Shown here: positions 2,976 through 57,200 of the stretch, in pieces
Position numbering within the stretch: position 1 is the stretch's first letter
Layout of the letters: every line of letters begins with the position of its first letter
From: Mytilus edulis
Lineage: Eukaryota
Direction of reading: 5' to 3'
Assembly: GCF_963676685.1 (NCBI RefSeq)
Contig: NC_092349.1
Coordinates: 87,482,001 to 87,546,000, forward strand
Length of the DNA stretch: 64,000 nt
Notes under the pieces: generated by a model
The model's input: only the letters and a program-made list of their open reading frames with translations
Database searches by the model: none
What the model was told of the DNA's origin: nothing
Position numbers and translations under genes: made by a program

Positions 2976-3245
2976 TTATCCAGACTTAAACAACAATATT
3001 GCAACTTGTCCCATGTAAAAATAAATAAAATGTTTGGTTTCATGTGTAACATAACTTCCAAAATTCCTTCCAACGACACAATGCCATGTTGGGTTATATT
3101 TCTTGTCAAAATCCTTTTTGATGAATGCGGCAATGTCTTTTTCAATATTGAATTTTTCCAAGGCCTGAGTGGAAGCTTCAACAGCATCTTGTTGCATATC
3201 TTCCGACATGTCAGCATTCTTAATAACAGCTTTCCTTTCACTCAT
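2976..3245 (-). CDS. DYNLL: Dynein light chain LC8 (DYNLL1/2-like), copy 1, 89 aa, intronless CDS
   Basis: [19 protein letters not shown]...[24 protein letters not shown]...FKSG is the LC8 signature. True start is the ATG at 3245, preceded by splice acceptor ttcag|CTGACACC-ATG (exon starts 3253). Confidence 0.97.
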
Positions 3246-5381: not shown

Positions 5382-5629
5382 CATTCATTTTAAACGGATA
5401 TCTATTATTTGCAATTTTAAAACGCTTTGATGTGTGAAAAACATAAAAATTCATAAAATCTATTAAAAGTATTATTAGTTTAAAAGTTATGAAATAAGGT
5501 ACTGTAATAAAACAAAACATGTTGAAGGAAATTATGTTGAAGCATGTAATAAATGAGTAAGAGTTTCGAATATGTAAAATAATTAAAAAAAAAAAATTCT
5601 GGTGTGAAAAAATGTAGGTAATTTGGAAC

Positions 5630-10500: not shown

Positions 10501-11269
10501 TACTATTTAGATCGTTTATTCAGGATGTGGGTTTGAAAGACAAATTACATTGTGATATTTGCCTTAGTTTCTACTGGTAAAGGTGAAATCATGATTTTGC
10601 TGGCAATAACAGAAATTTTAAAAACGAATAATTTCAATATGCGAAAAAAATACAGAGAGAAATTTTGGAAACGAAAATAAAATGTGTAACGTTTGATATA
10701 ATCGTCATCGCAAGCACTGCCAAAATGTACATGGAATCTCAAAACACGAACACACAATATCGCTTTTTCAAAATCTGTTCAGAAATATATCTGTGGTACT
10801 CCTTTGTTTTAATTTAATCTATTCCACTAAATCTGGTCTGTTTTTTTTCGAAACCTTATTGTTAATAAATATTACCAATAAAATATAAAGGGTGTTTATA
10901 TATACAAGTTTCTATGTACTTTGAATAACCGAAGATTAATTGGTCACATACTTACATATAATATATATTTTCTAAGTACTACTGTTAGTATGTATTTGTT
11001 TATGTGTGCTGAGTTCTACTATGTTTTTTAAAAGTTGTTAAGTTATGATTAATACCTTGTTAATGTAATGTATATAGAACTTTAATAAGCTGTGCGTATT
11101 GCTCAATCATTTTCATATCTTAATTGATAAAATATGTCTAAAATCAAAAACATCCATAACCCAAAAACTGTTCAGGAAAGGTATTGCCGATTAAACTACA
11201 GAACATACAGTGTTTGTTTACTTGTAACTCATTTTTATGTGTTCTGAATCTGAACATAAAATAAAATCA

Positions 11270-11600
11270 TTACCCCGAAATTTTACGCACGCCATCACGA
11301 GTCGGATGGTCGGTATGGAATATATGTTTCACAGATGACGACGGATATGTTCCATTTGTGTTAACTACAATCCCGTCCCCTTTCTCCCGAAAAAGACTTA
11401 TCACTAAGTTGATACTTACATGAGCAATACAACGGATGCCACCAGAATCAGCTTACCCTTCTGGAACACCTGAGATTACCCCCAATTTCTGGAGGCGTTC
11501 GTGTTGCATGCTCAGTATTAAGTTTTCTTGGTTGTGTTTTGTCCACTTTTGTATGTGTCTTTTGGTCTTTTTCTTTTTTAGCAATTGGCCTTCGCCTATG
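11270..11600 (+). mobile_element. Old Penelope-like element 3' fragment (also at ~35120-35430)
   Basis: Diverged match to 12710-13010. Present in both duplication copies. Confidence 0.7.
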
Positions 11601-12016
11601 AATTCTGTGTTGTTTATTTTTTGGTCATGCCTCTATTTAGTATATAGAAATACCATGTAATGATTGTATAATAACCAGATGTGATTAAATGTTGGACAAG
11701 AGATATCAACTAATTTGTTATTGTATCATTAAATCACAAGTAAACATACCTGAGATAAAGTAAACGCAAACTGCGTTTGTGATTGTCACATTTACACGAG
11801 TAAGGATTAAAACAGTTTTTTTTAAGTACTAAGCCTTTCATCATTTTATCTCGCTCAGAGGAATGTAAAGTGTAAAGGGGAGTTGTACAACAAAACTCGC
11901 TCAGAATGCGGAGGAAAACATTTAGGTTCAAGACTTTATTATCTGATGATGACATTATGCCATAAAACAATGTTATATACGGTATATTGTCTGGTGAACT
12001 TCTAGGTAGATTGTAT

Positions 12017-13072
12017 GAAGAATGGCCAACGAAGATACAAGTATTTTGTCTTAGGGAGGGATTAATCATACTTTGTAAAGGATTACTCTGATTCAAACAA
12101 AAAAATCTCTGAAACTGATATTATCAAGATGCTTGATTTCTTGATTGACAACATATTTGTTACGTTCGGACGACGTGTTTTTCAACAAACTGTCGGCATT
12201 CCAATTGGAACAAATTGTGCCCCTCTACTTGCCGACTTGTTTTTTTTATTATTATGAGGCTGATTTCAATCAGGAACTTCTTAGGAAGAAAGACAAGAAG
12301 TTAGCAATATCCTTTAACTCTACTTTCCGCTATATAGAGGATGTTCTTTCACTAAATAATGCAAACTTTGGTGACTATGTGGAATGCATCTATCACATCG
12401 AACTAGAGATAAAGGATACTACAGATACAGTTAAGTCGGCCTCATATCTTGACTTACATCTAGAAATTGACAATGAAGGTCGGCTGAAAACAACTTTACG
12501 ACAAAAGAGATGATTTCAGCTTTCCAATTGTGAACTTTCCATTTCTAAGTAGCAACATTCCAGTAGCAGCTGCATACGTGGTATATATCTCCCAATTGAT
12601 ACGATATTCCCGTGCTTGCATTTCCTATCATGATTTTCTTGATAGAGGGTTGCTGCTCACAAGGACACTATTAAACCAAGAGTTCCAAATGGTGAAGTTG
12701 AAATCATCCCTTCGTTAATTTTACGGACGCCGTCACGAGTTGGTTGACCGTTATTGAATAACCGTTTCACAAATGATATCGAACATGTTCCTTAAGTCGT
12801 AACTACAATCCCCTTACCTTTCATGAATGTGACCTACCGAATTAGACTATTTACCGGATTTGTTATTACATACATCTGCTTACCCTTCCGGAGCACCTGA
12901 AATCGCCCCTAGTTTTTGGTGGGGTTCGTGTTGTTTATTCTTTAGTTTTCTATGTTGCGTCATGTGTACTATTGTTTGTCTGTTTGTCTTTTTCATTTTT
13001 AGCTATGGCGTTGTCAGTTTATTTTAGATTTATGAGTTTGACTGTCCCTTTGGTATCTTTCGTCCCTCTTTT
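12017..13072 (+). mobile_element. 5'-truncated Penelope-like retroelement, decayed reverse transcriptase plus 3' UTR
   Basis: Frameshifted GIPIGTNCAPLLADLF, FRYIEDVLSL (YIDD mutated), SASYLDLHL, YDKRDDFSFPIVNFPFLSSNIP and YISQLIRYSRAC motifs. Absent at the paralogous site (~35846). Confidence 0.85.
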
Positions 13073-13436
13073 AAAAGATAAACAGCGCAAAAAACATCTA
13101 ACGGTAAATTTAAAGTCAGAATTTCAATAACTAAAAAAAATACGGAACAGTTTAGTACATTTCAGCCTGTAAATAAGGTTCATTTTTATAAGGTATCTCT
13201 CAATGCATTTATATATATTTGACAGTTTTAACATTTAGATGATTCTCTCTTCCATGCAACATACGGGTAGGTAAGTAGTCCATCATAGCGACAAACACAT
13301 ATAGGGACATGGAACAAGTCCATGAGCGTATTTGATAATGGAAAATTCAAAAATGCGCACCAACCACAGCACAGAAGAACGAGAATTTGTTTTGTTTGTG
13401 TTACTTATATCATTTGTGTTTTGTTTTTATAATTGG

Positions 13437-13640
13437 TATAAAAAAGAAGATGTGGTATGATTGCCAATGAGACAACTATCCACAAAAGACCGAAATGACA
13501 CAGACATTTACAACTATAGGTCACCATACGACCTTCAACAATGAGCAAAGCCCATACCGCATAGTCAGCTATAAAAGGCCCCAAAAAGACAATGTAAAAC
13601 AATTCAAACGAGAAAACTAACGGCCATATATATGTAAAAA
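13437..13640 (-). repeat. 5'-truncated copy of the twister-bearing repeat family (no ribozyme part)
   Basis: Reverse complement of 59645-59836. Absent from the paralogous site at ~36210. Confidence 0.85.
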
Positions 13641-13748
13641 AAGTATAGTTATTTTCAAATTTGGTCCAAGTTCAAACAAGTTCTGCAAGTATGACAACGA
13701 TTTCTTATGCGTTTTAAATATGTTTAATTGTAAACTGAATTTCCTTTA

Positions 13749-14018
13749 TTAACCAGATTTAAACAACAGAATTGCAACTTGTCCCAAGTAAAAATATATA
13801 AAATGTTTGGTCTCATGTGTAACATAACTGCCAAAATTCCGTCCAACGATACAGTGCCATGTTGGGTTATACTTCCTATCGAATTCCTTTTTAATGTATG
13901 CAGCAATGTCTTTTTCAATGTTGAATTTCTCTAGAGCTTGTGTAGAACAGTCAACAACATCTTGTTGCATATCCTCTGACATATCAGCATTCTTAACAAC
14001 AGCTTTTCGGTCACTCAT
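13749..14018 (-). CDS. DYNLL: Dynein light chain LC8, copy 2, 89 aa
   Basis: Complete LC8 ORF. Acceptor tttag|CTGCATA-ATG (exon starts 14025); exon 1 donor GCAG|GTAAG at 15311. Confidence 0.97.
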
Positions 14019-14579
14019 TATGCAGCTAAAACACGAAACAATTTATACATATTTGTATATTTCCTGTACAGTTTCAGTTAACTTAAGTTTACAAAAACCC
14101 ATTTATCATGACGATAACACTTGTTTCATATTCCACTTGTTACTTAAGAATTGATTTTGTTATCCATTTTAAAAGATTTTGTCATGTATTCCATGACATA
14201 TGGTGTCTGTAAACAAGGAGGCTATATAACCTAGATCAAAATGAAATACTTTAAGCTCTTTTTAAATTGTGCTTGCCATAAGCAATCTGAATGATGCTTA
14301 AGTTGAATGTTGGTCCTATGTGGTTTTTCATAATAACTATAGTTTCGAATGACGTGTACGCTTACGAAAATATTACTAGGAATTCGTTAAATTTGCAAAT
14401 GGAGCTGGAAATACTACATTTTAATACAAACTTATTACATATGAAAAATGTAAATCATGACGTATTTTGCTGGAAGTTCAAAGATGCTTTCATATATAAT
14501 ACTTAAATCACGATAAAATAACGACTAAATGTCTAAATGAATTGCATTCTGTAATACATGTATTTAAGAAAATAGTTTT

Positions 14580-14650
14580 TGAAGAGACATGTATTGTCGA
14601 AATGAGCATCTGGTGCAAGAAAATTGATACCGTAGATTTTATTTCATAAT
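14580..14650 (+). mobile_element. Truncated retrozyme end with a partial hammerhead
   Basis: TGAAGA-GACA TGTAT TGTC-GAAA-TGAGCA-TC-TGGTGC, the same subfamily as 23818-23861, lacking the 5' strand of stem I. Confidence 0.8.
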
Positions 14651-15310
14651 CGGGAGGTATCAACAGGATTTATTTTATGCAATGTGACGTTGCTGAGAGC
14701 AGTATTTCCAGTCCTGACATTTTATATAATATAGTATATGTTCTATATACTCAATACTTTCACTTGGTAAAATATAATTGAACAATAGTTAAGTCAGCAG
14801 GCAATTGAACATAATGTATTTCAGAATTTAAAGTCATTATGCACAATGATGCATGAATAATCTATTCAAAATTCTAAATCCGGCTTGTTGGGTACAGTTT
14901 TCTAAAGAAATATATTAGTCCAATTCCTTGCTCACTTTCTTGTGAATATACGAAAGACAGATTGTAGGTATATGTAAGCCTTTCTAGTCAAACGAAAACA
15001 TTTGAATACTTTTGTCTATTTCTTAACAAACAATCAATAAGATGGTAATTGACCCTAAAAGTTTCTGATGTAAAGGGACTAAATACAACCGGAATATAAA
15101 TAATAATAAAATGGAAATCAATGTAGATATGTCAATGTACGTTAATATCACATTTCAAATACTATAATAATATCCAGAATATATGGTAGATTGATTTAAC
15201 TTAATAATGACGATATGCATTAACTGGTTATCAATGAAATGAACAGGTTATATTGTCTTTAATTCACAATTCAATATTTGAATATTTTGAAAATTATCTA
15301 TTTTCCTTAC

Positions 15311-15477
15311 CTGCAAAAGTCTTTTGTCATACAATGTACATATATGTTTATAGACGCAGTTCCTATAAGTAGCACATTGATTTTTATTACATATTTCTTC
15401 ACGGTTTTGCTTTTGCTTATCTTAGTATACAACTGGTTGACTTAACATAAGTTGCTTGGATTAGTTTGTCATCCCAG
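15311..15477 (-). promoter_or_regulatory. Putative non-coding exon 1 and promoter of LC8 copy 2
   Basis: Donor at 15310-15309. Conserved motif CTTGGATTAGTTTGTCATCCCAG at 15455-15477. Confidence 0.7.
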
Positions 15478-16129
15478 AATACACCGGAATCGGATATATT
15501 AGAAATTTCAATTTAAATACACTTTGACCTGAATCTACATATTACATCTTTGAATGAATATTAGGAACATAAAGTTAAACAACTTAAAACTTTAAATGAC
15601 TTTTTTGGAGGCGTTTATCAAATAGCCTTATGCATTCGAGTCTCTATAACAACTGGCATAGACCCACCTAATATTCGACTTGATTGGCAGCATAAAACAA
15701 AACAAAAATAAAGAAGATTTACAAGATGTGAAGTATTGATTTTGTATTTGAGAACTTATACCTTAATAGGGAAATATTATAAAGAAGGTGTGTTACATAG
15801 TCAGACATGCATTTACAATACTTCATTAACTTTTTCTGTAAAACAAGACCTGATAGTATTCCTTACAAAACATCATTAAATGCTGAAACAGTTTGTTGTT
15901 AATTGGAAATTGGTTCAACTAAATTATCCAAATGGACGTCACATATCACACTTGATCCTACAACTAAACTTGGTAAAAAATATAGGAGACAAGACGAAAA
16001 CATCGGGAGTATTCGGCCATTACGCAAAAGGATTCCAATCCAAGTTCAAATGCTGAAAAAAAATCCCGTTTATACTTTTTTCATATCTCAATATTTGAAG
16101 CAGAAAATAATTATCAGCTTTCTTATTAA

Positions 16130-16351
16130 GAATTAATCAACAAACTGCACTTTTTACGCGTGGGAATTCTTAACAAAATGTATGGTTTCGTGTGAAATAT
16201 AACTTCCAAAATTATAACATGTTGTTGGATACATTTATGTATATATATTCAGCATTGACATTTTCAATAGCTTTCATACTAAAGTCTACACTATATTTTT
16301 AATGTCACCTGACATTACAGCATATCTTATAAAAACTTTTATTTCAGTCAT
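16130..16351 (-). pseudogene. Degenerate LC8 pseudogene (copy A)
   Basis: Translates with frameshifts to MTEIKVFIRYAVMSGDI / VDFSMKAIENVNAE / NFGSYISHETIHFV. It keeps an acceptor 8 nt before the ATG (ttcag|ATAGTATC-ATG), as in copies 1 and 3. Confidence 0.85.
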
Positions 16352-17284
16352 GATACTATCTGAACATAATTACACTAATTTATTAATTATTCTTTGTATA
16401 TGCAAGATAGTGCCACTAGTTGAGGAAGATCTGCACAACCTTCTGTAGCACCCGCGATCATCCCACATTTTTGATTGGGATTGTATTGTTTAATCTTTAG
16501 TTTGCCTGGTAGTTTGTATGAACTTGTATGTCTTTTCGCCGTCTTTCATTTTTGTTTTTGACGTTCAGTAGCTCCTTTGTTTGAATGTTCTCACTTCACC
16601 CCTTTACCATGATGTTGTCCTTTTTTTATTCACTTATTCTTCTTCATTGCCCATATGTAACTGCTTTTTTATTTGTTTTTTTTACGTCTGTAAGAATACA
16701 GAACGATAATTAAAAAGCTCTTATTGGTTATTGTTAAATGCATGATACCTGTACTTTAAATTGTTTTGTTTTGTGTGTTTCTACCCAAATCCGTGTCTGA
16801 TCAATGAAGACGTAACAGTTAAGATGAACAAAACTAAATACGTGAATTCTTGGGTCTGAAGTTCAAGTTTGGACTGCATAGTAAGACCGAAACCGTTATA
16901 TGGGTCGTAACTCGTCGTTAAATAATTTACTGTATTTATCAGCTAAATCATTGTACATTTTAAATCATTTTCACGGCTAGATAACGTCTATATAAACATA
17001 TAATGAAAATGTAAATACTTTCACCCATGTCGAAATTGTTAAGTGTGACTGCATTAAAGTAAGTGTTGTCATCAACAAAAATTATTCATTCATCTGTGAA
17101 AATACAAAATACAGTTAAAGTCATATGAAACAAGTTAAATTATACATTTATAATGTTATCGAACTTATTGAACCAGTGCATGCATCTATACTATTGTTTA
17201 GCCGATTTGTCTCCAAGCCGACGATCGTCTGTTCAAAGTATTGTATAATAATAAATAGTAAGTGTATGTAATGTACTTTATAAT

Positions 17285-17763
17285 TTTTATGCCCCACCTA
17301 CGATAGTAGAGGGGCATTATGTTTTCTGGTCTGTGCCTCCGTTCGTCCGTGCGTCCGTCTGTGCGTCCGTCTGTGCGTCCGTCCGTTCGTTTCAGGTTAA
17401 AGTTTTTGGTCGAGGTAGTTTTTGATGAAGCTGAAGTCCAATCAACTTGAAACTTAATACACATGTTACCTATGATATGATCTTTCTAATTTTAATGCCA
17501 AATTATAGTTTTGACCCCAATTGCATGGTCCACTGAACATAGAAGAAAATGATAGTGCAAAGTTCAGGTTAACGTTTTTGGTCAAGGTAGTTTTTGATGA
17601 AGTTAAAGTTACATCAACTTGAAACTTAGAACACATGTTCCCTATGATATGATCTTTCTAATTTTAATTCCAAATTAAAGTTTTGACCCCAATTTCACGG
17701 TCCACTGAACATAGAAAATGATAGTGGGAGTGGGGCATCCGTGTACTATGGACACATTCTTGT
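17285..17763 (+). mobile_element. Non-autonomous Helentron/DINE-1-like (HINE) element
   Basis: 5' subterminal ATGCCCC...GGGGCAT, (CCGT/CTGT)n microsatellite, two ~172-bp tandem units, 3' GTGGGGCAT plus short hairpin GTGT-actatgg-ACAC, T-rich flanks. Confidence 0.8.
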
Positions 17764-18397
17764 TTGTTTCTTTTTTTGCTTTTTTGTAGCACTGGGTGAA
17801 TATTGGTGGTGGTTAACAATAAAATAAGTTGTTTTAGTAGATTAAACAACCGAACCACAAATATAACAGGCTCTATGTCATGTGTTTGAGAACCACGACC
17901 CATGACCTTGGCATTGAAGTCAAAGTCATATGTCAATTTGATTTAATACATTTTCACATTTGCTATCAAGTCAACCGGAAGTGGTCAATTATAAATCACA
18001 AGTCGTCATAGTTGAATTTCAACAATTTTATGTGAAAAATACCCACTACAATATATTTTTAAATCAGTATGAAATATCATAAGAAACCGGAAGTGACATT
18101 CTTTGAACTAAAAGAAGTAAATCATCTCAATTTTTATTAAAATTAGACATAAACTAACCTTTTTTTCATGACTAAAGTTGTTATTTGACAATTTGCATGA
18201 CTGTGTATTTCCATTAAAAATTACTGTAGAATCAGTATGACGTAACATATCAAATAACACCGGAAGTGATAAATCGGACGGAGTAAATGCTCGCCCTTAT
18301 AATTTACAAAAGTATATGAAAACCAACCATGCATGGAATCACAGTAAAGACTGCTATTATTGACACCTTAAATGACATTGTGTAAAGCGGGAGTCGA

Positions 18398-20490
18398 TAC
18401 TTACTTACTTAATGATACTTAATGATGTTTTCCGGTACTGGATCCTCACGGTTCCTCTTCACCAGACTCATATGTTTGATTGTTATCTCTATTATTTCTA
18501 TTGTTGCTTTCGGTTATTGCAGCTCGATAATCAGAAAAATAGATTTCTTCGTATTCGAAGTACTTATCTAATCTATTTTTTAATGCGTTTATAGATGGCG
18601 CTTTTGTTCCTTTATTCGGTAACTTGTTCCATAATTTGGCAATTCTTATTGAAAAGCTGTTTTTCCTCAGACTTGTTTTGAATCGTTGGTGAATGATTTT
18701 TTCCATTTACTCTTGTGCTATGCCTATTTTCGGTGTTTGAAATAATTTGAGAAATGAACTCGTTTCTGGATCGTATTTACCGTTAAGTATCTTGTATGTC
18801 TCAATCATGTCTTCTTGGACCATTCTATATGACAATGTTGGCAGCTTAAGTTTTTTCAATCTTTCCGGGTAGCTTAATTTATTGAATCCAGGTATCTGGC
18901 GTGTTGCCCTTTTTTGTACATTTTCGATTTTGTAAATGGAAAGGTGCCCGTACTGAACTAGTATAGTCTAAGTGTGTTCTCACTAAGGTTAATGTCCTTC
19001 TGATTGCAGCAAAAATTGAAAGACTTCAAACAGCAGTCTGGGGTGTAGATTATCAGGGCCAGGTGATTTGTCCGTTTTTATTTTCTGGAGGTGTTTCAAA
19101 ACCAAATCAGTGCCAATATTTAATTCCTCTATTTTCTTATCTAGTGAAATATGCTTAGGTTCTGGAATATTGCCTTGTGGTTCATTAGTGAATATGCTTG
19201 TAAAATACTCTGATCATATTTCAGTCTTTTGTTTGTTATCATCTGTTTTTTTTTCGGATTTTACATCTTCTGTGTCTACATGTAGATCTCCTATACCTTC
19301 CCTGGTCTTGGATTTGGATTTTATATAGCTCCATATGGCTTTAGGATTTGTCTTAGCATTTTCAGATAATCCTTTTTCGAGTAATTTCTTTTGTTTGTTG
19401 ACTGATGTTTTGGCCTGGTTTCTGACTTTATTGTATTCAGCTCTTGTTTCTGGATCTTGTTTAGTTATATTTTTTTTGGATAGAATATTTTTCCTTCTAA
19501 TTAACTCTCTCGTTTGTTTGTCTATTGAGAATACATTTTTCTTTTTTCCTATTTGTGTCATAGTTTTGTTTTCTAATTCTTTTAAAATGGTTAAAAAATA
19601 ATTCCAATTAATATCAATGGAAATGTTAGCATTAAGCTTATTATGCCAGTCTATTTTATTCAGCTCTTGTACATGTTGTAGAAAATCTTTGTAATTTTCA
19701 TGATTATACAGTTGAGCTATTCTTGGTGCTCTTTTTATATTTACATAACAGTTAAAATCAAAGGATAGGACGCAGTGGTAACTTTTTCCAAGCGGGCTCA
19801 TATATTCTAAGTTGGAAATCCTCTCTTCTTCGTTTTTAATTAGTAAATCAAGTGTATGGAGTGTGTCAGCTCCTCTCAATCGTGTTGGTTTTGTTGTGTG
19901 TTGGTACAGAAAATTGTCTTGTAGTGCTTCCAGAAATTTATTTTCAATGCTGTTTGGTCTATCCCCCTTTGTGTTCCATGATTCCCAATTGATTTCAGGA
20001 TAATTAAAATCTCCCATAATGAGTATGTTGGAGTACCCCATATCTATTGCCTCTGACATTAGGTTTACTAGCTAATCATTGTACTCCTTGGAACTGTTGG
20101 ATGGGGTTCTATCAGACCTACAAGGAGTTTATCATTTTGATTAAGTTTTACCTTTATAAATATATTTTCTTGAAACTCTGTAGCTTCTAGGTTGGAGTCT
20201 ACATACATTAAAAGGCCTCGTCCTTCATCTGACTTTATGTTTTCTCGAACATTTTGTAATTTCCTACCTCTGGTAATGAGTATTCCGCTGTTGATAGTTT
20301 ATATCTGTTAGCTTTTGGTTTTACTTCTGTTATACCAATTATATTTGGTTTGTTGTCTCTTGTTCCGACGTTCAATTCTGACATTTTGTTGAATAGCTGA
20401 TCTGCATTAGTATAACAACAGTCCAATTTGGATAGAACTGTAAAGTTATTTACATTGCCGTTTAAAACCTTTCCCTTCTTTTGTACATTG
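18398..20490 (-). mobile_element. CR1-clade LINE remnant (APE endonuclease and ORF2 C-terminus; RT core deleted)
   Basis: YTNADQL, IIGITE, GDFNYPEINW, LGKSYH, KSPGPD, LVRTHLDY and LWNKLP...KNRLDKY motifs; (TAAG)n-like tail at 18398-18425. Confidence 0.9.
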
Positions 20491-20599
20491 ATAGTTGTCT
20501 CTTTTGTACGGAGTTTCAGTAAACTACTACGCATCATGTAAACAATATTTCAAGGTAACAAACTTAATGATGTCATAAGAGTTTTTTTTGTCTTTGGAT

Positions 20600-21311
20600 T
20601 GATTGATCGATTTTCGGTGTTTAACGCCACTATAGGCTATACAGTAATGGCCAATTTATTTTGGTGGAGGATGCCGGAGTGACAGAAGAGAACCAGACTT
20701 TTTGCAGGAAAATTGGCAACTCTACTAGTCAATTAGGATTGGAATCGAACGCACCTGTCAGTATATGCGTGTTCTCAGAGTTGTACTTGGTACCTTTTTT
20801 GTTGTAAGGATGTATAAGTACCCTGCCACATCCGGTCTGTGTTGTTGTTAAATGTCTGTCTGCTTTGTATCGATCTGATGAGTTGCACCCTTTTCCACTG
20901 ACTTTAATAGTTTGTTCTTATGTTGTACTGATACACCACTGTCTAGGTTACTTTGAGGGTTCGGCGCCCGCAAACTACTTTAACCCCACCATATTCTGTA
21001 TGTGCCTGTCCCAAGTCGGGAGCCTATAATTCAGTGGTTGTCGTTTGTTGATGTGTATCATATTAGTTTTTCGTTATTATTTGCTTTACAAATCAGGCAT
21101 TAGTTTTCTCGTATGAATTGTTTTACATTTGTCGTTTCGGGGCCGATAATAGTTGACAATGCGGTATGGGTTTTGCTCATTGTTGAAGGCCGTTCGGTGA
21201 CCTATAGTTGTAATTTTCTATCTCATTTGGTCTCTTGTGGAGAGTTGTCTCATTGGTAATAATACCACATCTTTTTATTTTTATACTAAGACCACTCGGT
21301 CAACGAGATCC
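20600..21311 (-). mobile_element. tRNA-derived SINE remnant interrupted by the twister-family insertion
   Basis: A-box-like GGATCTCGTTGACCGAGTGGTCTTA at 21311-21287; the body continues at 20755-20600. Confidence 0.5.
20756..21285 (+). mobile_element. Near full-length, diverged copy of the twister-bearing repeat
   Basis: Colinear with 59325-59836; twister-like domain at 20935-21038. Confidence 0.85.
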
Positions 21312-21882
21312 ATCTTTGTATTGTGGATGCTACATGTATCTTATCGGCATATACCCCATCCTTCTATTCATAAAACTAAGATGAGACTTGTTTTTGTTAT
21401 TGCTAAATAATGCAAAGCAACTAATGGTTTGCAAAAACAAAAATTAACTTGTAAAAGATTGATATTAATTGTATTGAACATGAACTGAAATCATCACTAC
21501 AACGTTGTATGATCGTCATCACGAATTAATCGATCGAATGACTGTAGATGAGTTATCAAAATATTTCATGTCCTTTTAATCATCGTTTGCAACTTTAAAA
21601 AAAATAAAATAAATAGGGGAGGATTACATATATTTAACTTACTGATGAAAAAGACAGGAAGATAATATTCACTTACATATAAACAAAACCTTGTCTAACT
21701 ATAAAAATAAAAAGGTGATAGTATTGACGCAGCTTGATATATCGATTTGAATATCTTAATTTGTCGCTGAAGTAATATTCATTGTTGATATAAACGGGAT
21801 TGTTACGTATCTTATAATAAGTATACAAATAGTTAACAAAATATATATTTCACGATCTTCATTCAGCTTGATATAAGATTAT

Positions 21883-22343
21883 CTAATTTAGTTTCCATCC
21901 TGAAAATATTGTACGTGTATGACCGTCGTTGCTTAAAAGACGACCTTGATGGTTAGATGTATTTTTGAAATAAACAGTTCCACCTTCTCTGACGTATTTC
22001 ATTATGAATCCAGTAGAACAGGCGTCATCACTGTAAGTTTCTGTGTCTGCATGTACTTTTCCACAAATCCGTCCGTCAACAACCAACTCTGTTCCAAATT
22101 CCCCATATCCTCCACCCTCCTTTGTGTTACTGTCTACACAAATTGTCCAGGTAAAGGCATACATTCCACTAGATATTGCTTGGACGATGCCCGTATTGGT
22201 GTTGTAGACACCAAAAGTGTTAGTTTCTGTCTGGTCAAAGATCAGCGTTTTCCCCTGTGACAATGAATTACTATAGCCATTCACAAAACCTTGAGACATA
22301 TTATGTGCCGAAAATCCTATAAACTCTCTCGTTTTTCTATACT
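21883..22343 (-). CDS. C1q-domain-containing protein, terminal exon (globular C1q domain); native signal-peptide exon not found
   Basis: Open frame YRKTREFIGFSAHNMSQ...LIFDQTETN...YNTNTGIVQAISSGMYAFTWT...TIFSGWKLN*; phase-1 acceptor ttttgttttgatctag| at 22344. Confidence 0.85.
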
Positions 22344-23790
22344 CTAGATCAAAACAAAATGGAAAATTTAATTTGTATATTTTTTTTTAGATTAAATTGT
22401 TTTATCTAGTAGGAAGGTAAACGGCTTAAGCTTTCTTTGAAGTTTGCAAGTTTTTATTCGATACTTAAACTTATAATCAGGTTTCAAGCGAATAACCTTT
22501 CTGTTAGTGACAGGTGCAGCGTTAAGCGATTTGTTAGACCTTTATTTTGGCCTGTATTTTTGTTGGTGGAGGAGGGGGTAACTCATTATGGTTTCTATTA
22601 TGTTAAGAAGACTGTTTGTAAATATGCCAATATTACTCAAAACTGAAAGCCAGTAGTCCACGATCGATTTAATCACTGGTAACAACTCATAATCATACAA
22701 CAAGTTGTCTGCCTTGACCAGATAAACAACAGTTAAGTAACCTATTCAATCGCACATCCTTATGTCGAAAAAAATTCAAACCAAACCGATTTGTCATTGT
22801 TTCGAAAAATAAAAGGTCTTTAAGTTAACAAATTTGTGTCACATTTGCTATCAATTCATATCAACCATGATTTTATAAAACTGAAAACAATTGATGATCA
22901 TCGGAAAAAATAACAAAAAAGTATTTAAATATAAAAGCTTACAAAATGAATGCAAATCGTAGAACAATTTATTCTAGGCTGTACTTATATTTATATTCAA
23001 TAAATGTCGGATGTGAAGCAGGAATTGCACAATTTCTTATAGAACCAGTGGAGTTAAAACCTACCTCTAAGCAATGTACTAGTACTCCGATCTAATTACG
23101 ATAAAAATATGTGATAACGCGACGAGTAAGCGAGTTACGGTAACTCTGAATCCATGTCAGGTCAACCTTCCATGAGGGAAAAGAAATCTTAATTAACAGA
23201 AACACTTAAATAAATCAACTGAGAGTTATTAATCGTGTTAGCACCAAATCACTGACTATTCAACTATTAATTTCCTCGGGCCTAGGATATGCTTATTATA
23301 ATAAAGCAGTAATTGTCCCTAGCCTGTGAACATATTTCAAAGGATTGCATAACTGCTGGACATAATGTTACCTAATTGTAAAAAAAAAAAATCGAAAATA
23401 AGTGATGACTTTATGTAGATTTACATTTTAAAATAATGGCCTTTTTCATATATTTGAACAATACATATACAAATCATGTAATACACTAATTTTACGAGTC
23501 CTCACATATTATAAAATATAAAAATTACATTTAATGAATTGTGTGATAATATGCATGAACCAACTGTCGCCTAACAAACACATACAGTCAATTGTTAAAG
23601 TATCAATACTCTTTTATTATATTTTATCAATATTTCACCTGTAACAATATTCTGATGATTTATCATACAATTAGGAATACATCGTACAGTTTATATCTAA
23701 ATATTTAAATATATGGAATAATGTCATTATTTCTTACCCGCAAAAGTCCTTCAATATGCACTGTATGTATATGCTGTAAGTATTGTTAAT

Positions 23791-24114
23791 GATAAAATCA
23801 ACGGTACCAATTGTGTTGCACCAGATGCGCATTTCGACAATACATGTCTCTTCAGTGATGCTCGTGGCCAAAATATTTGAAATCCAAAGCTTATATAAAA
23901 GATGAAGATCAATAATCCAAAAGGTCCAAAAAGTATAGTCAAATTCATGAAAGGAATCAGAGCTTTGCATGAGGGAGATACATTCCTTAATTTATAATAA
24001 GTTCTAATATTTTGTAACAGCAAATTTTAATAACACAAAAAATCCGTATTTTCATGCCAGTACCGAAGTACTGGCTACTGGGCTGGTGATACCCGCGGGG
24101 ACGAATAGTCCACC
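23791..24114 (-). mobile_element. Retrozyme-like non-autonomous retroelement (324 bp)
   Basis: Absent from the paralogous site (gttaattagttgcat, ~5266-5280). Carries an intact hammerhead and a cUUCGg hairpin on the same strand. Confidence 0.85.
23818..23861 (-). ncRNA. Type I hammerhead ribozyme (AUC cleavage triplet)
   Basis: GCAUCA-CUGAAGA-GACA(UGUAU)UGUC-GAAA-U(GCGC)A-UC^UGGUGC. Core complete; stem I 6 bp, stem II 4 bp. Confidence 0.9.
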
Positions 24115-26800
24115 GTTGCATATTGATTTAATAGCATAATTTTTCACGGTCTTGCATATGCTCATCGTGAGTTTTAACTGGTATACGTAACGAAAATATC
24201 TTGGATTAGTTTTTCATCCCAGCATTCATCTTAAACGGATATCTAGTTATCTGCAATTTTAAAACGCTTTGATGTGTGAATCTATTAAAAGTAGTATTTG
24301 TTAAAAAGTTATGAAATAAGGTAATAAAACTAAACATGTTGAAGGAAATTATGTTGAAGCATGTAATAAATGAGTAAGTGTTTCGATTATGTAAACTAAT
24401 AAAACAAAAAATCTGGTGTGAAAAAATTGAGGGAATTTGGAATTATGCTGTCAGTCCACTAAACCCGTCGAAAATTGAATATGTTCGCCATTTGGAACCA
24501 TAGTTTTTCACTTAATAACTTAGACGACAGAAAACTTAAACATTACCCCCTGAATCAACTTTGGAAATTTTAATAAACGTATGTGGCCACATTGCCAACA
24601 TTTAGTCTAAATGCTTTAGTTAAGAGTTTTGATTATGCATGTCGCAGAGCCTCTGACGGTACAACTGAAAGAAGTAAGTTCACGAAGGGTTAAAATTGAC
24701 CCTAAGATTTTGATGATCAGGCCAAAATACTACATATTTCGAATAGAAATAGCTATGATATTACTATTAATACAACACAAGTTCATTTTGGGACATCACA
24801 TTACAAATGACGAAGTATTGACTACTTAAGTGTGCATTATTTGTGTTGTAACGTCAGTTTTGGTAATGTTTTTTAATAATTCTAAACAGTTTTTAGGGTA
24901 ATTACATTAGCCGCCATCCATGATCCAGAACGTGTTTATGTCTAGGGATTCAATATCATCATTGGCAACTTTTGGTTACAGAATATTAAGGATCCTAAGT
25001 TGCGGCCAAGGGTTTCCTCAAGATTTAAGGTCCGCAAAATGCACAAAATCATCGTATTTTTACAATATATCCAAAACATACTGATTTTAAAGACAATAAT
25101 GTACTCCTATGAAGAGATTGGTTTTAACAAAGAAGTAAGGCTTTTGAAATAGATCCATTTAAGAACCAAATTATGGTCTTTTTGAAATTTTATGTTAAAG
25201 TTGAAATTAAAGGCCACATTTGGCCTTAGGTGAACCTTGTCCTTTGCAGCATGTTATAATTCAACTAAGGTGATACCAGAATAAAATGATACATAAATTA
25301 TATGTGATAATATGAAATTGTAAATGATGTGAGGTTGCATTAATTATTTCTTAAATAACCGCTAGATAAAAAGTGTTTAATTCTTTTAATTCTCTAACCC
25401 AATATTGGTAATTTTTATTTTCATTTTTTTTTCTCGTTAGCTACCGTATAATTCACTGTTGACATTTTATAACTAAGGAGCCGCCATGTTGACTGGCTGA
25501 AATCAGTAAATGTGTGAATAAAGCAATATAATAGGAAAAAACCCAACACCTAACTCAAAACTTCATTTTATTGCAATATTATCCGAATTCGGAGGGTTAA
25601 CGCAACGTAAAAACCTTCAGCTTTGGCGTTTTCATTCGTATGACGTCATGTTTTGAAATGACGTTTATGCGCAAAAAAACATTGATGGAATTTCGCGGAA
25701 TTTTGTAACTAAGGAACCACCATGTTGACTTGCTGAAGGGCCTTTTTCAATTGCAATTTTTAACACAGCGAAATCGGCATTGCGTTTGCACATAGGTTAC
25801 GAAACATGTAGATTTACGAGGGAGGTATATTTAAACAGCCATTAGTTTGTACATTTCGGAATCTGCGCTAAGTATAGATATATCGAGAATTTTATCACGG
25901 TTTTGTTTACAAAACGAAAGAAGCACGTCATATTAGAATCCTTCATATAAAAAATCTATTTTTCTGTCAAAGGGATGATGAAAACAAAGATATTAGACAC
26001 TTAAAATATTTAATATGCAAAATACTAGGCTTTAAAGATGCCTTTATTACCTGTATTTATGTATGAAAAAGCTGAATTATGTCCCTTGGGAGCATTAATT
26101 TCCTACAAAAGTCCTCTCAGACAGTACAAAATGACAAATTATATATGCCTGATATAATAAAAGATAGAGACTACAAAATGAAGCACTATTGAAATATTTG
26201 CTGCATGAATTGCCAACAATGTGAGCAATCCTTTACATAGGAGTGTACAAATTCTATCTAAATTTATCCTCAGGTGGGACTCTTTTTTTCTTAAATTAGA
26301 CAATTTTAACACTGAAAATGCTTTTAGTATGATCAAATATTGTCTTACTCCATAAACATTACAAGCTTAACCACACAATTTCCTATTTTAAATGTTATTA
26401 TGCCTAGAGAAATACTCAAGTGATGCATTTCGGGAATTTAACACAGCAAAAAAGGCAAATATATGGTTAAAAATATTTGTCGCGACTTGAATTCTTGGAT
26501 TTTCAATTGAATTAATCATTGCAAAAGGAGAAAACAAATACAAAAGAAGAATAGCTTGGTGCAGTTTATACAATATAGTTAATATTGAAATCCTAGAATA
26601 AAGTTTTATATCAGTATCCATCAATTTGACTTATAATGATGACTCAGCACTTTTCTCAACACAGTACTGTTCTCAGTTAAAAAAATTCTATTCTTTGTGA
26701 TGAAAATCAAAATAGTATAATATGACTGAAGTCTGATTAATTTTGATTTCCCTTGCTATCTTGAGTATAGCTGGGAACAGTATATATATGTTCCTGAGTA

Positions 26801-29019: not shown

Positions 29020-29119
29020 NNNNNNNNNNNNNNNNNNNNNNNNNNNNNNNNNNNNNNNNNNNNNNNNNNNNNNNNNNNNNNNNNNNNNNNNNNNNNNNNN
29101 NNNNNNNNNNNNNNNNNNN
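29020..29119. other. Assembly gap (100 N)
   Basis: Run of N. It hides the LINE 5' end and probably the paralogue of ~9920-10600. Confidence 0.99.
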
Positions 29120-29785
29120 ACTCATGGTCATCCAAGTAGAAATCATGTTAGACCATCACAGGCTTCATATCAGAACCAAAATAGACAAGCAAATGGGCAA
29201 ATCCCACCACCGCCAACATACCATCAAGCCAATCTACAAAGGTCATCTCATTATCATCAAAATAGAAACAACAACCAAACAATGATGACTCAACATACCA
29301 ATGCAAACGCTAAAGCATCAAGTAATACATTGGAAAAACAACAAGCAAATACTACACATGTATTATATGCTGACAATTCAACAAAAGTCGTAGCTCAAGT
29401 CCCAACAAGTATATGCTCTGATGGACAAAACAAAATGGTGCATAGAAATAACGTAAAAACTCACCACATACCAGTTAGACAACCAACAACAGAAAGCAAG
29501 CAGTCAGAAGTAACAATAACTGAGAACTTTCAAGTATCAGCTTCATTAGTACAATCAGAAGTAGCACCTTTGCCTGGTGAAACGATCAAGGAATCAAACC
29601 AAATAGTTCATCAGGAGGAAAATTCAATCAAACAAATGACGGGAAACAATCAAGATGCAATTGATGAAGGAAGACAGAACCAATCGAACTCTTTTTTAGA
29701 AATTCCGAGCCTCAAGAACAAACCACCAGACATCCTCAGAATAGGCATGGCAACAGAAACACTCAACAGTCACGGCAGAGATTAA
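29120..29785 (+). CDS. LINE ORF1, C-terminal low-complexity (Q/N/T-rich) part
   Basis: Open from the gap to TAA at 29783-29785; overlaps ORF2 in the -1 frame. Confidence 0.7.
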   Translation, partial: THGHPSRNHVRPSQASYQNQNRQANGQIPPPPTYHQANLQRSSHYHQNRNNNQTMMTQHTNANAKASSNTLEKQQANTTHVLYADNSTKVVAQVPTSICSDGQNKMVHRNNVKTHHIPVRQPTTESKQSEVTITENFQVSASLVQSEVAPLPGETIKESNQIVHQEENSIKQMTGNNQDAIDEGRQNQSNSFLEIPSLKNKPPDILRIGMATETLNSHGRD

Positions 29786-32700
29786 ATATAGTTACCAGCA
29801 ACATAGAGGGTGTAAAGGGAAATGCAGCCTATCTTTCAGATCTAAGTAAAGAACAAGATATTATCTGTTTACAAGAACACTGGTTATGGTCTTTTGAACT
29901 TCAAAAACTGGACGAAAAATTGGCAGACTATAAGATATTTGGCCGGAGTCACGATTGTAATGAACCAATAACTAACTACCAAATTCCAAGGGGAAGAGCA
30001 GGCGTAGCTATTGCCTGGCCGCAAAAATTTGACAAAGTGATTTCAAAATTGGATGACGGGAATGAAAGAATTATAGCAATAGAGATCATGTCAGTACCTA
30101 AACCAACATGCCTCATAAATGCATACATGCCAACAAATGCAGCACAATCTCTGGATGAATATAAGGAATGCCTAGACATCATATTTAACATCAAGAGCAA
30201 ATATGATCAGTCACACAACATCATCTTATGTGGAGATCTAAATGGAACATTGATATCAACAAGAAACAACAAACATGATATTAGTCTCAAACAATTTACT
30301 TCCGATAATGGATTAAAACCAACTCGAGACATCCAATCAAAACCTACATATTTTCACACAGATGGAAAGGCTACTTCTCAAATTGACTATATTCTGTCTA
30401 ACAATGACATCCTACTATCAACCAGTATTTACTGTCAAGATCCAGTAAACACATCAACCCACGTACCAGTAAAAGAAGAACAGTAAATCTAAAGCAAACT
30501 CAGTAGCATATAAATTAATATGGGAAGAAATGGATAAAGACATATACATAAATGAGATTGATAAACATCTTCAATACCTTCGAATTCCATCCGATGAAAC
30601 TACAGTTGATGATAAGATAAAATGTGTCATGGGAATTCTACACAAAGCTACCAAACTAGCAGTACCATCAAGAATTATCAAACTAAATGGACCCAAAAGA
30701 AAAGCTTCCCCTGATGTTAAAAGACTAATAGGAATTAGCAAAAACAAACATAGGCTCTGGAACGATGCAGGAAGACCACGAGACGACCATCCTCTATTTA
30801 AAGACAAAAAGGAAGCCAAAAGAAATCTCAGAAAACAACAAAGAAAAGAAACTGCACTAGAAAAAGAACAATTCATTCAAAAACTTGAAGAAAATCAAAA
30901 TGACCAAATATTCCACCAACTTATCCGAAGAAATAGATCAGAAACTTCAAAATCTGACACTAATTTTCTAAAGATGGGAGAGGAAGAAGCTATATCCAAA
31001 AAAGAACAATGTGAATTACTAGCAAAATACTTTAAAGATTTGGCCCAACCAAAAGACAACGTTAATTTCAACAACGAAAAACTTCTGAACTGTAAGAAAA
31101 GATGTAAAATCATAAAAGAAATCACAAAGGCTTCAACCGACACAGAAGTTATCATAACTAAGGAAGATGTCCGGAAAGCTATAAACCAACTCAATACTAA
31201 GAAAGCAGCAGACGAATATGATTTAGCCTCAGAACATTTGCAACACTCAGGGGAAAGCTTGCATGAAATACTACAAGAAACATTTAACCAAATTCTATTA
31301 GAGGAAAAAGTACCATTAACGTTTAAAACCGGAACAGTATCTCCGATTCTGAAGAAAGGAAAGGCATTCTATGAGGTAGAAAATTACCGTGGTATAACAG
31401 TCACATCAGTTATTGGAAAAGTATTTGAATATATCATTTTGGATAAATCTAACTTAATGAAATCGGGTCAATCTCCTTTACAGTTTGGTTTTACACAAGG
31501 AATATCTCCAAACATGGCAGCCCTTATACTTTCGGAGGTATGCTCAGAGATCACAGGAACACAAACCATCTTCGTCACAACACTCGACAGTCAAAAAGCA
31601 TTTGATGTTGTAAGTCACGTGATACTGATGGACAGGCTATATCACTACGGACTAAATCTGAATTTGTGGAACATTATCGAGGAGCTATATAGCGGCGTAA
31701 CATCAACAGTAAAATGGAAAGGAGAAACAAGTACAAGCTATGAAATACACCAGGGCGTGCGACAAGGAGGTGTCCTATCTACTCACATATATAAGCCTAC
31801 ATAAACGAACTGCTTCTTGATCTGCAAAAACGAAATCTAGGGTCTCATATAGGCAACAATTATGTTGGATGTCCTACTTGCGCAGATGATATCGTACTTT
31901 TATCCCTCAATAGAGAAGAAATGCAAGAAATGCTGAATATTGTCGATAACTACTCAAAAGACCATCGATTTAACATCCATCCTCAAAAGGGTAATGTTAT
32001 AATAAAGTCTGGAAATAAACGTAAAGATCCTGAAGATAGCGATGCTTTTAAAATGGGGAACAATGATTTAAATTGTACGGATCGTACAACCCATCTAGGG
32101 CTAACAAGATCAACAAAAGATGAAACCCGAATAAATGTAGATGATCGCATCAGTTTAGCCAGAAGAACATTATACTCGCTCATAAAGACTGGTGTACATG
32201 GCTCAAATGGTTTAAATCCTAAAACTTCATATGGGATCTATCAAGCATACGTCCTACCAAGGCTACTGTACGGGCTTGAAACTCTACATGTGAATTCTAA
32301 AGAAATGTCGCTTCTTTCAAGCTTCCACCTCGATACCTTGAGAAAACTTCAGTCTCTTCCGAAAAGGACAGCATGTGCATCAGTATACCTACTTCTGGGA
32401 GCTCTACCGCTTATTGCTGAAATTCACAAAAGACAACTTAGCCTCTTATTTTGATGTTCTCAATAGCGACAATGAAACTATTAGATCACTAGCTTTGCGT
32501 CAATATATGTCCGGAAGATGAACAAGCTTCTTCACCAAAACAGCAGAAATTTTAGAGATGTACAACCTACCTTTCTTTCTGGAATTATGCGAAAAGAAGT
32601 ATTCAAAAATAGAATGGAAAAAACGGACAAAATCAGCAATAAACGGTCATTGGACTAACAAACTACGCCTAGAATGTGAAGAAAAATCAACTCTACAAAA

Positions 32701-33175
32701 TTTAACAATTTCGAACTTAACAATAGGTGTCACACATCCTGTTTGGGCTACAGTTTCGTCATCAGTCTCGGACATTAGAAAAGCAATTACAAAAAGCCGC
32801 ATGTTAACGCGAACCTATCTATTACAAGCTCATAGACACAGATTTAAACAGGCCGAAGTAGACCCGATTTGTCCAAACTGTAGAACTGAAAACGAAGACC
32901 TATGTCATGTTTTAACAACTTGTCCGTTGTATATGAACATCAGGATAGCATTATATACTCCAATTAAGAACTTTATAGTGAGTATTATATCTGAATCAAC
33001 ATGGGGAACTCACTTCAGTAACCGTGAGGCAATATGTACACTGATAGTAGACTGTCAAAGCTTCGCAAATCTGAACATTATACCGAACAACCCAGAAATA
33101 CTTGGAAAGATTGAAAATCTGTCCAGAATATACTGCTATGAAATTCACAAAAAGAGACTATCAGCCGAGATATAA
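29698..33175 (+). pseudogene. LINE ORF2 (endonuclease/reverse transcriptase), broken by stops and frameshifts near 30485, 31795 and 32451-32520
   Basis: ORF-track pieces 29920-30486, 30530-31804, 31921-32454 and 32558-33175 are consecutive domains of one protein. Confidence 0.9.
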
Positions 33176-36315: not shown

Positions 36316-36585
36316 CTATCCAGATTTGAACAATAAAATTGCAACTTGTCCCAAGTAAAAATATATAAAATGTTTGGTTTCATGTGTAACATAACTGCCA
36401 TAATTCCGTCCAACGATACAGTGCCATGTTGGGTTATACTTTTTATCAAATTCCTTTTTGATGTATGCGGCAATATCTTTTTCGATGTTGAATTTCTCTA
36501 GAGCTTGTGTAGAACAGTCAACAGCATCTTGTTGCATATCTTCTGACATATCAGCACTTTTAACAACGGCTTTTTGATCACTCAT
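36316..36585 (-). CDS. DYNLL: Dynein light chain LC8, copy 3, 89 aa (duplicate of copy 2)
   Basis: Complete LC8 ORF; acceptor tttag|CTGACACC-ATG (exon starts 36593); donor TCAG|GTAAG at 37058. Confidence 0.97.
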
Positions 36586-38804: not shown

Positions 38805-41093
38805 TGTAACTTCTTTTTTTTATTTTGTTTTTTACACCGAACGACGATTAGTGTTATATATATTATACCTTACATTCTTTTGTCTTGTATGCTTCCCCCA
38901 AATCGCCGTCTGTACAATGAAGAGGTGAAAATTTAGTATAACAAAATTAAATACGTAAATTCCTCGTCTGAAGAATTAGTTTTGACTGCTAGGCAAGGCC
39001 GAAACCGTAATACACAGGAAAAATTGCAACATATGATTTTCATATGTTTTATAAAACATATGAAAAACATATGATTTTTATATGTTTTTCATATGTTTTG
39101 TTCAACATATGATAATCATATGTTTTAAAACATATGTTTTCTGTCTGTTTTGAAACATATGAAAAACATATTCATATGAAAAACATATGTTTCATAAATC
39201 TTATGAAAAACATATGTTTTTCACGAAACATATGAAAAACAGCTGTTGAAAATCTTATGAAAAACATGTTTTTTATGAATCATATGATAAACATATGTTT
39301 TTCTTTATGTTGAAAATTACGTGAAAAAGGTATTTTTGTGGTATTTGAAGAGCATATTTAGCCTATTATACTCCCAGATTCAGCATATTAATCTATAATC
39401 TAACACCATATATTAGTGATAAACCCTGATAGTTTTGCATGGTTCACAAATCTCATTAGTGATCTTAGATCGAAGATGTTGAATAAATGTGTAAACATAC
39501 ATATGTTTTGCCTATGTATAACTATGATATTACAACAAATGCATAAGATAATGCATGAATCTTTAAAGAAATGATATATGCCAATGCTAAGGAAAATGCA
39601 TACTTAATATTATTAACTTAAAAGTACTTGTTTCAGTCAGACTCACAATATAATCATAAACTTAAGTTATGAAAATATTGCAAAGTCAATAAAGTCAATC
39701 AACAACGCATAAGGGTTGTAGTAAAAAATCTCCACAGAAATGAGATGTGCAGACGCTTATATAATAACATGTCAAATACCATAGACTTACCATACATTAA
39801 GTGATCCCTCGTAAACCAATTCATCAGAAACTTTAACATGTAAGCTATAGAAAACTTCAAAGTCAATAGACCATGACTGAAGGGCCTTGGACCAAGTTAT
39901 CTTCATTGAAATGATGAGTTTCAATACTATTATTTTCTAAAAGAAGTCATTTGTATGTATTTCCCATAGGGTCCTATGTTAAAGTAAGTCCCCTGCTGGT
40001 GGCCATTTTGGATGATGGCTACAAAGTAACAGCACTTCGTCAGCACCTCATAAGGAACATTTATGCTATGTTTGGTTAGCACCTCATAAGGAACATTCAT
40101 GCTATGTTTGGTTTGATTCCATTCAGTGGTTCTCCAGAAGAAGTTCAAAATGTAAAAAGTTTACACCGCCTGATGCCAAGTGATGAGAAAAGCTCATTGG
40201 AAATGAGATGTGCCTACGTCAGAAACAGTATTCCTTAGTCCTGTTTTTTGATTCAAGGTGACACAAAAACCAGAAAAGAAGGATTTTATTTTTTTTATAT
40301 ATTGATTAAACAAGACACCATTGTAATATGTATGATTAGACATGGTGAATGTGTCCAAGAAATAACAACATGAAATCTACACAATTCAACTCAAGCATAT
40401 GAAAGTGTAACTTGATAGAGTATATACGTTTCTGTCTCGTGGAATTGTGAAATAGAAGGCAATACATTCTTGCTCAATCCTGTGTCGCTTTTTTATCCAT
40501 GTGTTTCTGTAATTTGAATTTCAAAATGACTGAGTGACGTTTTTACGGCGAACTGGTCAACTCCACTATAGCGAATCACACGACTTTAACATAATCAGTA
40601 AATACCAGCAAAAAACATCATTTAAGGTAAAGAATTGTCGTATGAAAAAAAATACACGGGAAATGGCAAAGTTCTCGAAGTCTTGTCTGATTAATCAGTT
40701 TACAAAAAAAAATGTCCAAGCAAAGGGGGCGTATGACCCTCTACGCCCCCCTGTTTTGCCCCCACCCTCTGGAACCGCCACTGACAGTGATACTCAAATT
40801 GCAGACTCTTATTAGTAATAACAAAAATCTGTGTTTTCTGTGACCTCATTTTGTAAAATATATGTACATGATATTTTATTTATTACACTCTAACTGTCTA
40901 ACAGTTACATTTAATTATTCTCTGATTTAGAATAATTCTCGTTTGTCAATTTTCCAAACTTCACCATCATGCCCCCTTCAGCACAGTTATTTAATAATGA
41001 ATGGAACAAAATGTGAATGAGTTATAAATAATAGATAATTGATTGAATATCTGTTATTTAGTTTTTCTTTATTCTCATGATTCTTCCAGAGAC

Positions 41094-57195: not shown

Positions 57196-57200
57196 TTTAA

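Follow-up and report, generated by a model that had tools for sequence, protein, structure and literature searches.

Can the 5' end of a dynein light chain gene be placed in front of an exon for an extracellular recognition domain, and does such a join make a working gene? This question is raised by a locus of Mytilus edulis (assembly GCF_963676685.1, contig NC_092349.1). The window, which is the whole stretch of 64,000 nucleotides (nt) analysed here (positions 87,482,001 to 87,546,000; G000:C6:87482001-87546000), carries on its minus strand the 5' exons of a duplicated dynein light chain gene of the LC8 family, here called LC8A', upstream of the last exon of a C1q domain containing (C1qDC) gene. 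A first-pass annotation had read this as an LC8 promoter and exon 1 spliced to the C1q exon, with early decay as the alternative. We find that the chimeric layout is real and that the architecture of a promoter capture is present in the DNA. A young deletion within an older tandem duplication probably made the join at 23146-23152, and the hybrid is likely a pseudogene.

The genome searched comprises 1.37 Gb. The window was extended by 20 kb on its left side and 40 kb on its right; positions outside the window are given in these extended window coordinates. On the LC8 side of the join, 23146-23790 is 91.7% identical over 647 nt to 4355-4998, the intron and exon 1 of the intact gene LC8A, and 24115-25259 is 87.4% like the region upstream of LC8A. 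On the C1q side, 22872-23152 is 81% identical over 291 nt to the intron of the next (first) C1qDC paralogue, a match that ends about 140 nt short of the signal exon of that gene. The two intron homologies overlap by 7 nt, GATTCAG, at 23146-23152. The chance of an overlap of at least 7 nt is roughly 7e-4, and since both homologies meet at this overlap the layout is more than a chance arrangement. The LC8 5' exons lie in cis with the C1q exon, on the same strand and with intact splice sites. Furthermore, unfused parents exist: sequencing run X19 has native C1q intron at 23152, and the Mytilus trossulus protein P0023 is whole.

The coordinates on which the first-pass annotation had been built (donor 23737, acceptor 22344, the frame, the AUG at 22299 with A at -3, the 138 amino acids (aa) and the GIVQAI motif) all hold. 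It was also right that the coding exon of the LC8 duplicate is gone and that a native upstream C1q exon is missing. Between 22344 and LC8C at 36316 we found neither an LC8 coding remnant nor a C1q signal exon, and the signal exons closest to it in the genome, at distances of 47 and 54 kb, each have a C1q exon of their own. The promoter capture that had been suggested stands as a DNA architecture with a mapped breakpoint, but an insertion of 323 nt has broken up the arrangement of promoter and exon 1. The features of the locus are collected in Table 1.

Table 1. Features of the fused locus and of the LC8 genes in the window.
Feature	Position	Strand	Basis or remark
Open reading frame from the first AUG, 138 aa	21883..22299	-	No signal peptide, coiled stretch or strand 10-14; protein P0001, on record at NCBI/UniRef from the same contig
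Final C1qDC exon with an open frame over the whole gC1q domain and a TAG stop at 21885-21883	21883..22343	-	Pfam; AlphaFold model like C1q heads
Native C1qDC intron, 3' part, acceptor AG 22345-22344	22344..23145	-	70-89% to introns of two neighbouring paralogues; about 96% to X19
Fusion breakpoint, microhomology GATTCAG (7 nt)	23146..23152	-	Limits of homology; C1q side of X19 continues into native C1q intron behind 23152
Hybrid intron, 5' part, LC8-derived	23153..23585	-	Covered by the 91.7% alignment with the LC8A intron (4355-4998)
Second non-coding LC8 exon, 53 nt, donor GTATGT at 23585	23586..23638	-	X6 contig runs exon 1 > exon 2 > LC8-Z coding start
Intron of 99 nt, GT..AG	23639..23737	-	X6 contig skips 99 (CT..AC)
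LC8A' non-coding exon 1, 3' part, donor GT 23737	23738..23791	-	Contig of paralogue Z, guessed to be RNA, splices at the equivalent site
Repeat fragment, 323 nt of a 350-nt tandem/dispersed repeat	23792..24114	.	In or just before exon 1; absent from LC8A
Promoter-like conserved block of LC8A' (duplicate)	24115..24245	-	119/131 identical to LC8A 5274-5404; kept in four intact LC8 copies
LC8A coding exon, intact sister of the truncated copy	2976..3245	-	5' exons at 4792-5404
LC8B coding exon, block 1 of the old duplication	13749..14018	-	
LC8C coding exon, block 2	36316..36585	-	dS 0.34 to LC8B

Two features had been overlooked in the 5' part, namely a second LC8 exon in the untranslated region (UTR), at 23638-23586, and the insertion at 23792-24114. 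Evidence for the exon comes from a 128-nt contig of run X6, whose RNA nature is a guess. The contig joins 23767-23736 to 23636-23602 over a clean 99-nt GT..AG skip, and continues into sequence that, within the extended region, is found only at the coding start of the gene LC8-Z. This joint indicates that exon 1 is a real LC8 exon and that Z-type genes have a second UTR exon of 53 nt, so that the captured exons correspond to an LC8 5' UTR as seen for Z. The second exon is presumably also part of LC8A and LC8A'. It is intact in the fused copy, and the expected joint is therefore 23586>22343. The joint 23738>22343 that had been proposed has both its donor (TTTTGCGG/GTAAGA, with the GT at 23737) and its acceptor, but is probably not the main one.

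The conserved block upstream of exon 1 is a putative promoter, judged from its conservation among LC8 genes. It is separated from the exon-1 donor by the insertion, which lacks a target-site duplication and carries six AUGs on the minus strand. The inserted sequence belongs to a repeat with a period of 350 nt and at least 104 matches in the genome, most of them at 97%. Because LC8A is without the repeat, it must have arrived after the duplication. The repeat also occurs as short tandem arrays on many chromosomes, and it attracts many RNA-seq and small-RNA reads that share start sites.

The C1q exon is the second and final exon of a secreted C1qDC gene; M. trossulus has this gene whole (P0023). 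Its frame is open over 21883-22386, the acceptor AG ends at 22344, and the Pfam C1q domain is found with E=1.3e-9 and 38.8 bits, against a curated cut-off of 23.7. The closest whole protein, LOC134681739 (P0023), has 210 aa and a signal peptide and is 87% identical. It clusters at 90% with P0002 and P0024, which both carry the F54V of the orphan exon, and its gene lies on the same chromosome-length M. trossulus contig as that of P0003, the orthologue of the next (first) paralogue. The orphan exon is tied to P0023 by identity and not by the tree. A direct origin of the orphan exon from the next paralogue was rejected, as the tree puts the orphan with P0002/P0024 (94/89) and apart from P0003/P0026.

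Two C1qDC paralogues are found just outside the window, at 67817-69318 and 74480-76426, and in both of them a phase-1 intron separates the C1q exon from a signal/coiled exon of 55 codons. Searching the genome with the first 58 residues of the nearest whole relative gave seven matches, none of them in the window. The signal peptide of the secreted globular-head (sghC1q) class is thus missing, with no signal exon in the window or assignable in the genome to the orphan exon. With the Mytilus subfamily of two-exon secreted C1qDC genes (MgC1q96, M. trossulus LOC134681738-40, HIP-like) the chimera shares the last exon, the intron phase and the C1q fold, but it is without the signal peptide and the coiled stretch, and has F54V, P57I and an insertion of one codon. 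Other members of the subfamily are damaged as well. In this genome a MgC1q96-like paralogue (L017:823-1275, minus strand) is interrupted by an in-frame stop, and L011, the first neighbouring paralogue, has L at the conserved P57; decay is common in the subfamily. Furthermore, a relic C1qDC signal exon with ATG changed to ATA (L013; G000:C6:87568617-87568715) was found, for which we found no accompanying C1q exon.

How old is the join? The sequence of the block 4355-23152 is repeated in the same order from 23146 to about 69015, in patches that are about 71-92% identical. The synonymous divergence (dS) is 0.34 between LC8B and LC8C and 0.23 between the orphan exon and its positional counterpart, the next paralogue, and the tandem duplication is therefore old. 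Run X19, a DNA run with a different species label that was read whole, has contigs about 96% like the window over exon and intron. One of these, with a depth of 178, spans 22477-23152 and then goes on into sequence matching the native C1q intron of the paralogues. The orphan exon differs from X19 by about 5 synonymous changes in 105 sites. Because an unfused relative is so close, the join is younger than about 4% divergence, and far younger than the duplication.

These observations suggest the following course of events. A block of LC8, LC8 and C1qDC is present in two collinear copies, 4355-23152 and 23146 to about 69015. The copies are old (dS 0.23-0.34), with the fused exon about 4% from an unfused relative. 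The C1qDC gene was probably under relaxed selection already before the fusion. A microhomology-mediated deletion would have run from the C1q intron that closes block 1 into the LC8A' intron that opens block 2, and would have removed the C1qDC promoter, the signal-peptide exon and the LC8A' coding exon. The repeat fragment now found in exon 1 arrived after the duplication. The predicted transcript, exon 1 > exon 2 > C1q exon, would be poorly translated and probably a target of nonsense-mediated decay (NMD).

The same join might instead have arisen directly, through an unequal exchange or a tandem duplication that involved two deeply diverged haplotypes, the hybrid being non-functional all the same. 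Block 1 ends in the C1q intron and block 2 begins in the LC8A intron, as this would predict, and large hemizygous structural variation is described for mussels (PMC7653742). We consider this origin unlikely, since the blocks differ by dS 0.23-0.34 whereas the unfused relative is only about 4% away. Furthermore, M. trossulus has both C1q genes whole on one contig, and the LC8-side contigs listed for X19 are 96-99% like the fused copy, compared to 91.7% for the LC8A of this genome.

What could the hybrid produce? The leader of the transcript, with its start assumed near 24122, would be 482 nt long and contain seven AUGs, six of them brought by the insertion and none in the C1q frame; without the repeat insertion there would be at most one upstream AUG. 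No upstream in-frame start was found via either joint, as there is a TAG at the exon-2 joint and a TGA that precedes the exon-1 joint by five codons, nor did the hybrid intron yield a cryptic in-frame exon. Given these stops and the lack of a cryptic exon, the 138-aa reading frame is the only possible C1q product. As had been pointed out, this product is without a signal peptide and without the first strand: strand 10-14 (GFSAH), whose F11 is shared by 113 of 114 homologues, is encoded ahead of the AUG. In C1qB the core aromatics are F97, F115, Y126, F133, Y141, F143 and F215 according to PMC10672478. F11 would correspond to F97, and in that numbering the 138-aa product has V54 at the position of F133, so that its aromatic core is incomplete. 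Nor does the product fit the cellular globular-head (cghC1q) class, whose members are expressed without a signal peptide and have the domain whole, its own domain being truncated and its expression not found in the RNA runs read. AlphaFold models the whole exon (153 aa) as a jelly roll, with a predicted local distance difference test (pLDDT) score of 92 and template modelling (TM) scores of 0.76/0.87 to 1PK6_B, a prediction that is driven by the alignment. The sole indel seen in the exon is an insertion of 3 nt just before the AUG, absent from X19, which changes the -3 base from C to A. It is simple slippage in an AT repeat, and was spotted post hoc.

Among 130 homologues, 126 of 128 have F or Y at position 54 and 122 of 128 have P at position 57; the orphan exon has V and I. 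The F54V change is present in P0002 and P0024 and is not among the listed differences to X19; by this comparison it appears to predate the fusion. Comparison with X19 gave 17 listed substitutions in 14 codons, 5 synonymous and 9 non-synonymous, including a TGA at codon 95 in X19, and up to seven more are possible in the same two contigs. With F54V in other haplotypes and a stop in an unfused relative, decay began before the fusion, and the early decay that had been offered as an alternative fits the sequence evidence better than capture. The exon differs from X19 by 3.7-5.2% and the intron by 4.2% (28/669; Fisher p 0.47-1.0). When 10-12 substitutions were simulated, 64-70% of the runs kept the frame open; being expected by chance this often, an open frame is no sign of function.

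That the LC8 exon is spliced to the C1q exon, as had been stated, was not borne out. The junction-read check that had been suggested was run in six data sets of RNA or guessed RNA, and no read or contig connected the C1q exon with an LC8 exon (0 of 4 raw runs, 0 of 2 contig sets guessed to be RNA), a weak negative since carriers and tissues are uncertain. The raw runs were one RNA-seq (X24) and three small-RNA runs, of which 12-19% of each was read with no positive control. Eight of the 24 runs listed in the index were aligned to the locus. In X24, 361 reads were placed, none of them over exon 2 or the exon-1 donor, and the four raw runs together had no read on exon 2 or on either joint. The reads in the raw runs fell on the repeat, apart from about 12 partial C1q-exon reads whose loose end matches the HIP-like paralogue. 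Among the contigs, X5 gave short paralogue and repeat pieces only and X6 the LC8-Z transcript, and none came from the chimera locus. The best-matching RNA runs in the run index share 0.06-0.08 of the words, which the repeat alone could explain. In X18, from a different study, 454 nt of the exon are found without a difference, and the allele is therefore not private to this assembly; X18, of which 53% was read, does not reach the join.

Several points weigh against a decaying product of a young deletion, among them the incomplete count of differences to X19 and the thin sampling of the raw runs. The dN/dS ratio, which the first-pass annotation had suggested as a check, is 0.6-0.8 against X19 and rejects neither 1 (p 0.28-0.62) nor the paralogue-typical 0.35 (p 0.09-0.35); among the computed pairs without the stop-bearing L017 copy it is 0.20-0.48. 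Of the 61 positions that do not vary among 10 full-length relatives, 5 are changed in the orphan exon, still within the range of 0-5 for intact genes. All splice sites (both donors and both acceptors), exon 2 and the C1q frame are intact in the fused copy. An NCBI/UniRef entry exists for the 138-aa protein from the contig of the window, the basis of the model not being visible. The 138-aa form is modelled with a pLDDT of 94.5, and as both forms give high confidence, AlphaFold is no test of stability. Finally, the deletion step rests on one unfused run and an annotated protein, among the contigs listed, and not on a complete ancestral haplotype.

Some of these points would fit a functional capture. 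In this reading, transcription from the LC8A' promoter would yield a spliced mRNA, and translation starting at 22299 would give a C1q domain that has no signal peptide, stays in the cytosol and is expressed in a new pattern. In support of this speculation, the promoter block is 119/131 identical to that of LC8A, donors, acceptors and frame are intact, the protein is in NCBI/UniRef, and the identical stretch of 454 nt is found in X18. The 3-nt insertion gives an A at -3 of the AUG that unfused X19 does not have (a post hoc observation), and haplotypes without the repeat insertion would have no more than one upstream AUG. We regard it as quite improbable nevertheless, as the six RNA or RNA-guess runs gave no support, the best-matching RNA runs in the index shared so few words, which the repeat alone can explain, the insertion brings six AUGs, F11 is lost and F54V lies in the hydrophobic core, and the exon is no better kept than the intron. 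An equally doubtful but bolder version is a newborn gene, where the deletion put a dying secreted C1q lectin under the LC8 promoter and the 3-nt insertion afterwards strengthened the AUG context. If true, the LC8-expressing cells of carriers, which may be ciliated or germ-line cells, would produce an N-truncated C1q domain in the cytosol, and unfused, fused and repeat-inserted haplotypes would allow a step-by-step comparison in living mussels.

That the assembly has put two haplotypes in tandem is very unlikely. There is a gap of Ns at 29020-29119, and among the pieces listed no run bridges 23146-23152 in fused form, but the join lies 5.9 kb from the gap, in gap-free sequence and at a 7-nt microhomology, and the collinearity continues over the gap. 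Three DNA-like runs contain 0.84-0.88 of the words of the stretch, though these may be the source material. It is still less credible, indeed barely so, that the orphan exon serves as an alternative last exon, spliced from the signal-peptide exon of the paralogue 47 kb upstream to give a secreted protein: strand and phase-1 intron match, but this needs read-through past the last exon of that gene, its poly(A) signals and LC8C, and no such read was seen in the runs examined.

The hybrid is likely a pseudogenic promoter-capture structure, of a kind already known. The fusion of DMXL2 exon 1 with CYP19A1 in aromatase excess syndrome is a promoter-capture chimera of the deletion type, and upstream start codons on the captured exon are reported to weaken the outcome via NMD (PMC3272822). 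Like the mussel chimera, it has the 5' exon(s) of a neighbour moved by rearrangement beside the acceptor of the coding exon of another gene. Unlike in the mussel, where the signal exon and first strand are lost and no mRNA was found, the recipient coding region is whole and the chimeric mRNA has been shown. Drosophila Sdic (AnnX/Cdic; PMC3395120) resembles our locus in the duplication of neighbouring genes followed by a fusing deletion, and in a repeat near the 5' end. The promoter of Sdic has been tested, and the gene is expressed in testis and has gained a new N-terminus, whereas the mussel dynein gene gives UTR exons only and the coding part shows decay. Among polymorphic chimeras from tandem duplications in D. 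yakuba, 24 of 76 were upregulated, and they tended to low frequency (PMC5460883). These chimeras likewise combine the 5' end of one gene with the 3' end of a second, but the join is the duplication breakpoint, and in the mussel it appears younger than the duplication. No dynein light chain-C1q chimera in Mytilus was found among the papers listed in a literature search, judged by titles and abstract openings.

C1qDC genes are reported as enriched among the presence-absence genes of mussels (PMC7653742), and the locus is a base-resolved example of mussel structural variation breaking and reshuffling them. It is also a warning, as a signal-less 138-aa 'cytoplasmic C1qDC' protein in NCBI/UniRef can be what remains of a secreted gene. 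Should the hybrid prove to be transcribed and translated, it would offer a rare and testable example of bivalve gene birth by promoter capture, bringing an extracellular recognition domain into the cytosol.

The LC8 genes around the join form a tandem array of four intact copies (2976-3245, 13749-14018, 36316-36585 and L016:1497-1766), with dS of 0.34-1.36 and dN of 0.02-0.06. Their coding exons, on the minus strand and starting at -18234 (Z), 3245 (A), 14018 (B) and 36585 (C), each encode a whole 89-aa protein. The exact proteins of three of the four genes are not in the protein collection. LC8A carries an internal tandem duplicate of exon 1 and exon 2 (4723-5283). Its distal copy keeps the promoter block and has AT, not AG, as exon-2 acceptor; the proximal copy has an intact exon-2 acceptor and is without the promoter block.

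Each of the duplicated blocks carries one set of broken endonuclease/reverse-transcriptase reading frames like those of long interspersed nuclear elements, as judged from translations, at 18446-20549 (minus strand) and 29668-33175 (plus strand), the second of which begins just past the gap of Ns at 29020-29119. A tandem array with units of about 190-200 nt is found at 44886-45777, an AT-rich array of short period at 39012-39302, and a 1.1-kb inverted-repeat element, resembling a miniature inverted-repeat transposable element, at 56685-57760.

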